4,708 nt of DNA, taken from the IMG/VR virus record IMGVR_UViG_3300000292_000114. One strand, written 5' to 3'. The notes under the pieces were generated by a model that saw nothing but the letters and a program-made list of their open reading frames with translations, searched no databases and was not told the DNA's origin. The position numbers and the translations under genes were made by a program. Position 1 is the first letter of the stretch. Every line of letters begins with the position of its first letter. Origin of the DNA: a virus (taxonomy: Duplodnaviria; Heunggongvirae; Uroviricota; Caudoviricetes). Shown piece by piece: positions 2,888-4,708 of this stretch.

Positions 2888-3636
2888 ATGAAAACAATCC
2901 ATGACATCCGGCGGTCTAACGCCAGAAAACTGAGAGATGGTGTTGGCGGGAATTCTTCCTTTGCCACTATGATTGATCGCGAGCCAACCCAGACCAGCAG
3001 GTTTATGGGAGATGGTGCTACTAAAAATATCGGTGACAGCATGGCACGACACATCGAAAAATGTTTCGACCTGCCTGTCGGATGGCTCGATCAAGAACAC
3101 CAGACAACGAACATCACAAAAAAACCTGATGTTTCAATCACTAATAAACAAATCACATTAGTCCCTGTCATATCATGGGTACAGGCCGGAGCATGGAAAG
3201 AAGTTGGATATTCTGAGGTTGATTTGAGCACAGCAGAAACGTATCCCTGCCCTGTACCCTGTGGGGAAATGNNNNNNNNNNNNNNNNNNNNNNNNNNNNN
3301 NNNNNNNNNNNNNNNNNNNNNNNNNNNNNNNNNNNNNNNNNNNNNNNNNNNNNCTTGCGGGTGATAGGTGATTCAATGATTGATGAGTACCGCCCGGGAG
3401 ACATGATTTTTGTCGATCCTGAAGTACCTGCCTGCCACGGTGACGACGTTATTGCATTGATGCACGATACAGGTGAAACCACCTTCAAAAGGTTGATAGA
3501 AGATGGGACACAGCGTTATCTCAAAGCGTTAAACCCAAACTGGCCTGAGCCTTACATTAAGATCAACGGTAATTGCTCTATAATTGGTACTGTGATTTTC
3601 TCAGGAAAACCAAGAAGATACAAAATCAAAGCCTAA
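2888..3636 (+). CDS. cI-like prophage repressor, LexA/S24 peptidase family (two segments 2888-3271 and 3355-3636 separated by an 82-nt N-run)
   Basis: Track ORFs 2888..3364(+) and 3355..3636(+). N-terminal part has ...VISWVQAGAWKEV (Ala-Gly autocleavage-like motif, compare lambda cI HVQAGMF). C-terminal part has VIGDSMIDEYRPGDMIFVDPE (Ser nucleophile) and TFKRL (Lys). The two parts are in different frames if the Ns are length-preserving (span 749 nt, not a multiple of 3). Confidence 0.65.
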
Positions 3637-3648
3637 TCAATGTTTATG

Positions 3649-3671
3649 AACCTGCTTCGGCAGGTTTTTTT
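3649..3671 (+). terminator. Rho-independent terminator downstream of the repressor gene
   Basis: 7-bp stem AACCTGC (3649-3655) / GCAGGTT (3660-3666) with UUCG tetraloop (3656-3659), followed by a T7 run (3665-3671). Lies 13 nt after the TAA stop at 3634-3636. Confidence 0.6.
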
Positions 3672-3788
3672 ATACTTGATAATATACCTTTGAGATACAT
3701 AATGTACCCAAGAGAAACAACAAACAGGCAGGACGCCCACGAAGTAGCCGCCTGGGGCATATGAAGTCCAGGATGATTCGTTAGCAAC

Positions 3789-3811
3789 AAAAAAGCGCCC
3801 TATAGGACGCT
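3789..3811 (-). terminator. Candidate rho-independent terminator for the convergent DUF1311-like gene
   Basis: On the minus strand: stem AGCGUCC / GGGCGCU (one G-U wobble) with UAUA loop, followed by UUUUUUG (plus-strand A-run 3789-3794). Lies about 27 nt after the minus-strand stop at 3841-3839. Confidence 0.45.
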
Positions 3812-3838
3812 TCGCTCTTTAACAATCTGGATGACTTA

Positions 3839-4351
3839 TTACTCAGATTTGAACTTTGGTTCTGGCAAAAGAGGAGGAGTTGAGTCCTCGAATCGTAGCC
3901 AGTGCTCCCAGATATCGTGGGATTGTAATTCCAGAAGACCAATTTGACGTGATGCAACTGCAGTGCCAGCTATAGTTCCTCCTGCATAATCAACCTGGAC
4001 GGACTTTGACGCTTTCTCAATTAATTCTGTCCAAGCTTCACTTTCCGCGTTAAAAGAAGCAGTTAATTCCTGCAGACGCTGTGGATCATCCTTGTTGTCT
4101 TGTTTCAAACGATTCAGGGCGGCCACCGAATACTTATTCTTAACCCAACTAACCTGAGCTAACTGAACTCTCTGACAAGCGTCCATATCAGTAGTTGTTT
4201 CCTGAGGCATATCAAAGCAGGAAATAAAAAAAGTCTCAACACCATCATTTAGACTACTGCTCGGCTGGTTCAAAGCATCAGAAGCATTGGATGCTATCGG
4301 TATTATCAGTGCTACCGACAGAATCAAACGTTTAACATAAATCGCTCCCAT
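3839..4351 (-). CDS. Secreted (Sec signal peptide) DUF1311 / LprI-like protein, putative periplasmic lysozyme-inhibitor-type accessory (moron) gene, 170 aa
   Basis: Track ORF 3839..4351(-). AGAGGGGA Shine-Dalgarno 7 nt upstream of ATG at 4351. N-terminus MGAIYVKRLILSVALIIPIASNA|SDA has the n/h/c regions of a signal-peptidase-I substrate with no lipobox Cys. Mature part has a Cys pair (C46, C60) and YAGGTIAGT...RQIGLLEL, which I recall as DUF1311-like. Hand-counted 60-nt blocks give about 40-47% GC, lower than neighbours. Confidence 0.55.
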   Translation of the reverse strand: MGAIYVKRLILSVALIIPIASNASDALNQPSSSLNDGVETFFISCFDMPQETTTDMDACQRVQLAQVSWVKNKYSVAALNRLKQDNKDDPQRLQELTASFNAESEAWTELIEKASKSVQVDYAGGTIAGTAVASRQIGLLELQSHDIWEHWLRFEDSTPPLLPEPKFKSE

Positions 4352-4635
4352 TTAATTATCCCCTCTAAGAACAGAGTCATCCAGATTAGCCGAATCCTTG
4401 TTGTTGGGGAATAACCAGGCCCACCTCGCCTGATGTGGCTAAAAGCAGGCACATAACAGCTAAGTATTTTCAACCAGAGAGAATCCTTAGCGTTGTGGTG
4501 AATGCGGCTCAGCGCACGCGGGTTAAGGTTGAGGCTGACAGTCGACCTTCTGTGGATACCCACCCGCCTGGTGTGCAACCTTCGCCAGGCACCGGGAGGC
4601 ACCCGGCACCACAACTTTATGCTGTGTGTAGTCCT

Positions 4636-4682
4636 GGCGGTACCAGCTTGTACCCTTGCTTCCGGCTGGTACCGCTCTTTTT
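4636..4682 (+). other. Perfect 11-bp inverted repeat GCGGTACCAGC-N17-GCTGGTACCGC followed by TCTTTTT (terminator-like hairpin or protein-binding palindrome)
   Basis: Arms at 4636-4646 and 4664-4674 are exact reverse complements. T-run at 4678-4682. The loop contains CTTGTACC, the same half-site as the immunity operators. Confidence 0.35.
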
Positions 4683-4708
4683 ACAAAACAGAGAAGAGCA
4701 TCACCGGA

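Follow-up and report, generated by a model that had tools for sequence, protein, structure and literature searches.

What is a small secreted protein doing beside the repressor of a prophage, encoded on the opposite strand? This question is raised by a 4,708-nucleotide stretch of viral DNA (IMG/VR record IMGVR_UViG_3300000292_000114), hereafter called the window, in which a 170-amino acid (aa) open reading frame, ORF170, faces the cI-type repressor gene. The original prediction described ORF170 as a horizontally acquired accessory gene, or "moron", expressed in the lysogen from the position of lambda rexAB and encoding a periplasmic protein of the DUF1311/LprI family that might inhibit lysozyme. 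Our analysis partly supports this interpretation. We read ORF170 as lysogenic-conversion cargo carried by an SfV/e14-type lambdoid prophage of extraintestinal E. coli. Both the protein family, of which it is a divergent member, and the kind of prophage accessory slot that it occupies are known already. The window matches chromosomes of extraintestinal pathogenic E. coli (e.g. PA45B) at 100% identity and spans the genes for immunity and replication in a lambdoid prophage of the SfV/e14/CPS-53 type.

An exchangeable cargo slot beside the repressor

The slot, defined as the interval equivalent to window positions 3780-4421, was compared across 79 loci: 76 IMG/VR contigs encoding the identical cI protein, PA45B, and the SfV and PhiR29_1 references. 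Eleven cargo sequence classes were found, which comprise at least 10 unrelated genes and a 65%-identical variant of ORF170. A 144-aa protein is encoded on the minus strand in 31 loci, and SfV orf33 on the plus strand in 13. Proteins that combine a coiled coil with a zinc ribbon make up two minus-strand classes (6 and 2 loci), as do membrane proteins of about 160 aa, whose two-transmembrane topology was read by eye (3 and 2 loci). ORF170 and its 65% variant form two more minus-strand classes with 3 loci in total. Two further classes lie on the plus strand (6 and 5 loci), and one class, which we take to be ymfI/ymfJ of e14, encodes 113 aa on the minus strand and 102 aa on the plus strand (3 loci).

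In phage records, the matches to this region cover the flanks only, and these flanks are 96-99% identical to phages with other cargo. ORF170-type cargo, found in 3 of the 79 loci, is therefore present in some and absent from others among close phages, which is the pattern expected of a moron. Since this is rare occupancy of a true exchange hotspot, the label given to ORF170 in the original prediction is supported. The other ten cargo classes gave no Pfam or PADLOC assignment, except for a ClpX-type zinc finger in one 73-aa ORF. A defense annotation of ORF170 or of the ten other cargos was rejected because PADLOC matches were absent and the Pfam results were essentially empty.

The full 1,069-bp region around ORF170 was found, at a coverage of at least 80%, in 142 of 5,426 complete E. 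coli genomes. A Klebsiella variicola homolog, 71% identical, occupies the identical slot of its prophage, flanked by yfdP and by a repressor with HTH_3 and S24 domains that differs from the cI of the window. No homologs of ORF170 were found in 50,697 sequenced phage genomes.

Some further observations were made on the slot. Salmonella phage ST64B has no ORF in the same slot, which is filled by a GC-rich stretch of 273 bp (3059-3331) that looks structured and precedes the STnc100 region described below. A tRNA-like stretch was seen by eye in the Klebsiella locus, and ARAGORN did not call a tRNA. Two short metagenomic contigs (L286 and L287), which carry the P0014 homolog of ORF170, have two 171-aa genes in tandem (136-651 and 1292-1807). 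These may represent a tandem duplication of the cargo.

ORF170 is a coding gene with a predicted export signal

ORF170 (3839..4351, minus strand, ATG start) is annotated by RefSeq at the same coordinates in E. coli PA45B as the "hypothetical protein" WP_000500990.1. Comparison with the 65%-identical prophage variant gave a ratio of nonsynonymous to synonymous substitution (dN/dS) of 0.21 at a dS of 0.97. At the level of sequence comparison, this indicates that ORF170 is a real coding gene, evolving as a protein under purifying selection. The ribosome-binding site (RBS) that had been attributed to the gene can be read directly as GAGGGG, 8 nt 5' of the ATG (4360..4365, minus strand). A scan for sigma-70-like promoters found none for ORF170 with at least 9 of 12 matches in the E. 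coli or Klebsiella locus. Conservation between E. coli and Klebsiella is about 95% over the 75 nt upstream of ORF170, while the RBS region has diverged.

The convergent arrangement of ORF170 and cI (2888-3636, plus strand) was borne out, and two terminators, one for each gene, lie between them. The terminator of cI (3648..3667, plus strand; z -4.4) is annotated as a terminator in SfV. The cargo gene ends in an intrinsic terminator with a 9-bp stem and a U-run (3792..3813, minus strand), so a terminator is present as claimed, but it is part of a left module common to seven cargo classes rather than private to ORF170. The lower GC content proposed for the gene (0.435) holds in comparison with the replication genes (0.527) and the right flank (0.55) but not with cI (0.451) and cro (0.438), to which it is about equal.

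The N-terminus of ORF170 consists of MGAIYVKR, LILSVALIIPIA, and then SNA followed by SD. A rule-based reading finds a KR n-region, a 12-residue hydrophobic core, small residues at -3 and -1, and no cysteine lipobox. The predicted signal peptide comprises aa 1-23 (4283..4351, minus strand) with cleavage between SNA and SD, and its architecture is retained in all ORF170 orthologs despite sequence drift. ORF170 is thus predicted to have a textbook Sec-type signal peptide, in agreement with the periplasmic targeting that had been proposed.

ORF170 is a divergent DUF1311 protein

Family membership was less straightforward. Scored directly against the Pfam hidden Markov model PF07007 (LprI/DUF1311), ORF170 reached 17.3 bits (E 0.0062), below the cut-off of 22, with residues 50-137 aligned to profile positions 8-96 of 106. 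NCBIfam and PADLOC searches gave nothing useful, with no PADLOC match, and the full-length match in PHROGs was to a family of unknown function. Close homologs are confined to Escherichia and Klebsiella. A homolog profile was searched exhaustively against 1.84 billion cluster representatives and recovered 494 relatives, 253 of them at E<=1e-10; most are 130-150 aa long and align to residues 51-166. All 48 relatives sampled were members of PF07007 (best 7.9e-20). The broadened (A2) profile matched two solved DUF1311 proteins by sequence, 3GI7 (P. putida PP0307; 3.1e-6) and 6AR7 (B. thailandensis; 4.6e-7), both of unknown function. Direct sequence searches of the PDB with ORF170 or A1 as the query gave chance-level matches only.

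The AlphaFold model of ORF170 (predicted local distance difference test, pLDDT, 81; predicted template modeling score, pTM, 0.76) has a disordered signal peptide (residues 1-24), a beta-hairpin at residues 31-43, three long helices, and a C-terminal strand, and it shows the helical-bundle fold of DUF1311. The proposed assignment to DUF1311 therefore fell short in the direct Pfam check but was recovered through profile transitivity and the modeled fold, which together point to a divergent yet genuine DUF1311 protein.

Compared to the family, ORF170 scores below the gathering threshold, lacks the second cysteine pair, and adds the N-terminal beta-hairpin and a DSTPPxLPEP tail. Of the four cysteines (two disulfides), only C45 and C59 are kept in ORF170; the positions of the second pair are non-cysteine (K-A-S-K-S and A-S-R-Q regions) in ORF170 and the close enterobacterial clade, and all four cysteines are retained in distant relatives. 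Judging from these alignments, the second pair is lost in the enterobacterial clade. The tail has the conserved form H-x-x-W..W-L-x-Y-x-D-S-T-P-P-x-L-P-E-P and marks a DUF1311 subfamily of about 500 cluster representatives across Proteobacteria.

The genomic contexts of the relatives were then surveyed. At 72 loci (Vibrio, Photobacterium, Psychromonas, sphingomonads, and others), the neighbors are unrelated housekeeping genes. At eight closer enterobacterial loci (Raoultella, Klebsiella spp., Erwinia, Pantoea, and Sodalis), 2 of the 46 neighbor proteins have an S24 repressor domain, and the Raoultella and Klebsiella relatives, which are 56-66% identical to ORF170, occur in ordinary chromosomal contexts. 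These surveys suggest, therefore, that the family is mainly a solitary chromosomal periplasmic protein. The prophage copy looks like a captured branch of it.

The cargo lies antisense behind a candidate early-left promoter

In lambda, rexAB is transcribed together with cI and is located between that gene and the early-left promoter pL. The position of ORF170 was compared with this arrangement, which the original prediction had assumed for it. A candidate pL (TTGATA-16-CATAAT, 10 of 12 matches) was located at 3676..3703 on the plus strand, with support from synteny with ST64B and the Klebsiella prophage. It is overlapped by an operator-like site, ATACCTTTGAGATAC, at 3684-3698. This site resembles the palindromes GTACCTCCGGTGTAC (2805) and GTACCTTAACGGTAC (2855) and the half-degenerate copy AACCTTCAAGATAC (2839) of the right operator (OR) region, which spans 2804-2871 in the window.

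The same order is seen in prophages of other immunity. In the heteroimmune ST64B, 9-mers of its own OR region, TATATCGCA and CTTGCGCAA, reappear directly after the cI terminator, and homology to the window resumes only at window position 3723. Past the cI terminator, the Klebsiella prophage has a promoter (TTGACG-18-TATTAT, 10 of 12 matches) that faces the cargo and lies among three operator-like ACAGTTTT repeats. Together, the ST64B words, the Klebsiella promoter, and the window site therefore suggest that a candidate early-left pL and operator directly follow cI and that the cargo is located downstream of pL on the antisense strand. A different placement, with left operators (OL) near 4640 and a second boxA at 4672, was rejected because these elements make up the terminator (hairpin and U-tract) of the STnc100-like small RNA (sRNA).

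Thus, the idea of a rexAB-equivalent slot was not upheld: ORF170 is on the opposite strand to cI, and the candidate pL lies between the two genes. Lysogen-expressed genes near the immunity region include lambda rexAB, lambda and P22 sieB, and HK022 nun. Like these, ORF170 is an accessory gene by a lambdoid repressor and is plausibly expressed in the lysogen. Unlike rexAB, it is found downstream of the candidate pL, is not co-transcribed with cI, and has no sequence relationship to it.

The left module is common to all seven minus-strand cargo classes, whereas the three purely plus-strand classes do not have it. Its hairpin is a terminator on the minus strand only, with a centroid energy of -13.7 kcal/mol and a U-run, compared to -7.2 kcal/mol and no U-run on the plus strand. 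Directly after the hairpin, on the strand of the early-left transcript, there is a boxA-like element, GCTCTTTAACAAT (3814..3826, plus strand). It agrees at every position with a 13-base run of the rrn boxA plus spacer consensus, ugcucuuuaacaauuua (PMC2724277), and this was the one hit in the window, compared to 0.01 expected. The element is kept in the Klebsiella relative and in all minus-strand cargo classes; because the whole module is passed on together, its association with cargo strand is confounded. One possibility is that Nus factors bind the element and thereby protect pL transcription as it crosses the antisense cargo.

ORF170 is also bracketed by a perfect 13-bp inverted repeat, with a left arm, AATCTGGATGACT, at 3824..3836 and a right arm, AGTCATCCAGATT, at 4375..4387. 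A different cargo is carried by PhiR29_1, whose homology with the window breaks off within the arms, at 3832/3833 in the left and at 4378/4379 in the right. PhiR29_1 has its own perfect 13-bp repeat, AATCTGGATATCC and GGATATCCAGATT, in which the outer 9 bp are the same as in the window and the inner 4 bp are concordantly different. The Klebsiella homolog locus retains the window's version of the repeat although the enclosed gene has diverged. The repeat may be what is left of an ancestral palindrome, homogenized through template switching. Alternatively, it might frame the recombination that exchanges cargo, or pair as a long-range stem in RNA. In a search of viral contigs for adjacent arms, as in an empty ancestral palindrome, the matches were non-specific, and none of those listed had the expected flanks. 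An invertible cassette was rejected because a query with the synthetic flipped junction matched 0 of 5,426 E. coli genomes. As a separate observation, the repeat arms derive from a recurring motif of about 21 bp, GTTGTTGGGGATATCCAGATT, which is also directly repeated at 4399-4420.

This arrangement suggests how the cargo might be controlled. In the lysogen, CI bound at OL would silence pL, so that the cargo could be expressed. After induction, head-on transcription from pL would oppose the cargo or shut it down, and the boxA-like element may shield the pL transcript from Rho across the untranslated antisense stretch.

What ORF170 may do in the lysogen

Our preferred explanation is that ORF170 is a lysogen-expressed periplasmic inhibitor of an incoming cell-wall-degrading enzyme. 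We offer it tentatively, as a possibility drawn from family analogy and gene placement. The mature protein would be soluble in the periplasm and would act as a stoichiometric binder or inhibitor of an enzyme that enters from outside. An effector delivered by a type VI secretion system (T6SS) would be the first candidate target and a phage-delivered muramidase the second. ORF170 would thereby protect the lysogen as an orphan immunity-type factor. The analogy comes from Etsi4 of enterohemorrhagic E. coli (EHEC), which is also a periplasmic DUF1311 protein in E. coli and neutralizes the periplasm-acting T6SS effector Etse4 (PMC12981562). DUF1311 genes also flank WHIX T6SS toxins (PMC12135965). 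The relation between Etsi4 and ORF170 is remote and seen at the profile level only.

Several findings weigh against the incoming-enzyme inhibitor. Etsi4 adjoins its effector and Hcp in a T6SS cluster, in contrast to ORF170, for which no effector is present in the prophage locus. Among 138 neighbors of the 72 relatives, there was no enrichment of T6SS or hydrolase genes. The neighbors of 80 relatives likewise showed no T6SS, hydrolase, or defense enrichment, and an assignment of function through guilt by association was rejected for this reason.

A wider proposal combines this function with the arrangement of the locus. The slot would be an "antisense cargo bay" in the early-left leader, framed by the minus-strand terminator, the plus-strand consensus rrn-type boxA, and the bracketing inverted repeat, with unrelated genes swapped inside. 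Genes in the bay would be on only while CI silences pL, and boxA would let pL transcription cross after induction. ORF170 would be a prophage-borne orphan immunity protein against T6SS or phage cell-wall toxins. As a whole, we regard this combined proposal as doubtful.

Another possible explanation, which we consider unlikely, is that ORF170 modulates the cell's own peptidoglycan enzymes and so alters the envelope of the lysogen. The precedent is ScwA (Salmonella SL1344_0490), like ORF170 a soluble, periplasmic, horizontally acquired enterobacterial protein with an LprI domain. Its deletion left lysozyme sensitivity unchanged, and it controls the levels of the murein hydrolase MltD (PMC7933661). 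ScwA is thus an enterobacterial LprI-domain protein with a tested lysozyme phenotype that works in this way, and the chromosomal, stand-alone distribution of the ORF170 relatives would fit a housekeeping role in the envelope. However, ScwA has 275 aa and four cysteines and is not prophage-borne, so that only the domain is in common, and no peptidoglycan enzyme gene was linked in any examined locus.

It is equally improbable that ORF170 was captured from a host and is a passive passenger, selected for no function in prophage or lysogen. The relatives in ordinary Raoultella and Klebsiella chromosomal contexts, the rarity of the gene among the loci and E. coli genomes surveyed, and the failure to find a clear promoter would all fit passive carriage. 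It does not account for the purifying selection between prophage-borne variants or for the constant slot that the gene has kept in different genera and with different immunity types. Moreover, none of the RBS, signal peptide, and terminator has decayed.

Inhibition of host lysozyme was part of the original prediction, which took DUF1311 to be a family of lysozyme inhibitors. ORF170 would then block c-type lysozyme and shield the lysogen as it infects urine, blood, or mucosa. Its predicted periplasmic location, the Pfam name taken from LprI, and the carriers listed, which are mostly human extraintestinal and avian pathogenic E. coli, are consistent with such a role. M. tuberculosis LprI shares the family-naming PF07007 domain with ORF170, but it is a lipoprotein whose inhibitory effect is ascribed to a further domain, MliC (PMC7933661), and ORF170 has neither lipobox nor MliC. 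The authors of the ScwA study regarded MliC as enough for lysozyme resistance and noted a lack of experimental support for the PF07007 domain as an inhibitor (PMC7933661). The ScwA deletion result points the same way, and the premise of the original prediction was not sustained. ORF170 belongs to none of the proven lysozyme-inhibitor families by sequence or fold: besides the weak LprI score, it has no Pfam match to MliC/PliC (PF09864), Ivy, or PliG, its model is all-helical, and no such fold is among the listed hits. Furthermore, E. coli already encodes the inhibitor Ivy (annotated in EDL933). We therefore judge a host-lysozyme inhibitor to be quite improbable.

Exclusion genes such as lambda sieB, HK022 nun, and T4 sp are often found in accessory slots of this type. 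A Spackle-like superinfection exclusion protein, acting in the periplasm against the tail or ejection muramidase with which a phage enters, would suit a slot in which prophages exchange many small accessory genes, and T4 Spackle (gp61.3) is, like ORF170, small, phage-encoded, and predicted to be periplasmic, but we consider this possibility slim, given that no sequence or fold match to Spackle was found in PDB sequence, PDB fold, or BFVD searches, that BFVD returned no structural match to any viral protein, that neither Spackle nor a lysozyme inhibitor is among the listed structural neighbors with which the proposed comparison was made, that PADLOC matches and homologs in the sequenced phage genomes are absent, and that most relatives are solitary chromosomal genes outside prophages.

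Neighboring features of the window

To the right of the slot, an STnc100-like prophage sRNA (RF02076) was identified at 4462..4684 on the plus strand, where it ends in its own terminator hairpin. The match covers the full-length model at 45.4 bits, compared to a gathering threshold of 47 (E 5e-8). STnc100 is a known prophage-associated sRNA (bioRxiv 10.64898/2026.05.13.724894). ORF170 and the STnc100-like sRNA are divergent neighbors, and the GGTACC repeats found here are the terminator stem of the sRNA. RefSeq annotates a frameshifted pseudogene from window position 4495 onward, overlapping the STnc100-like match; this "frameshifted hypothetical protein" is probably not a protein gene. The element was also considered as an antiterminator of the HK022 put type; it shows no DNA similarity to HK022. 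A perfect 15-bp long-range stem is found downstream (4684-4698 with 4757-4771 in window numbering, past the window end) and suggests that there is more structured RNA between the STnc100-like region and yfdP. In PA45B, the region to the right of the window contains yfdP, yfdQ, yfdR, and further genes as far as int, all on the plus strand.

To the left of cI, the window encodes a Cro-like ymfT (2600-2800), a CII-like ymfL (2002-2565), and an O-like replication gene (743-1660), all on the minus strand. Small unannotated ORFs lie at 1650-2005. One of them, at 1670-2005, matches phrog_1170 (unknown function), and a DUF4222 protein is annotated by RefSeq in this interval of PA45B. The repressor belongs to the LexA/S24 family. 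Runs of N mask the window at 573-719, 846-982, 1709-1718, and 3272-3353; the run inside cI breaks the frame and splits cI into two apparent ORFs (2888-3364 and 3355-3636). Within the O-like replication gene, at 1288-1351, a 15-bp unit, CAGATTTTGACGGGT, occurs about four times. These repeats are probably origin iterons, as in the lambda ori.

Implications for the prophage group and the DUF1311 family

For the family, these results mean that when a protein has DUF1311 only, its Pfam name, "lysozyme inhibitor LprI", is not enough to establish that it inhibits lysozyme. The DSTPPxLPEP tail defines a recognizable DUF1311 subfamily without known function, of which the prophage acquired one branch. 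For the prophages, a compact and highly exchangeable cargo slot has been mapped in a group that is common in E. coli, Shigella, Salmonella, and Klebsiella, and its ten other cargo classes are untapped candidates for lysogenic-conversion or exclusion genes. The most unusual aspect of the locus is the frame behind the candidate pL, with antisense cargo and a consensus boxA. This antisense position suggests a simple way in which the expression of cargo may be confined to lysogeny.
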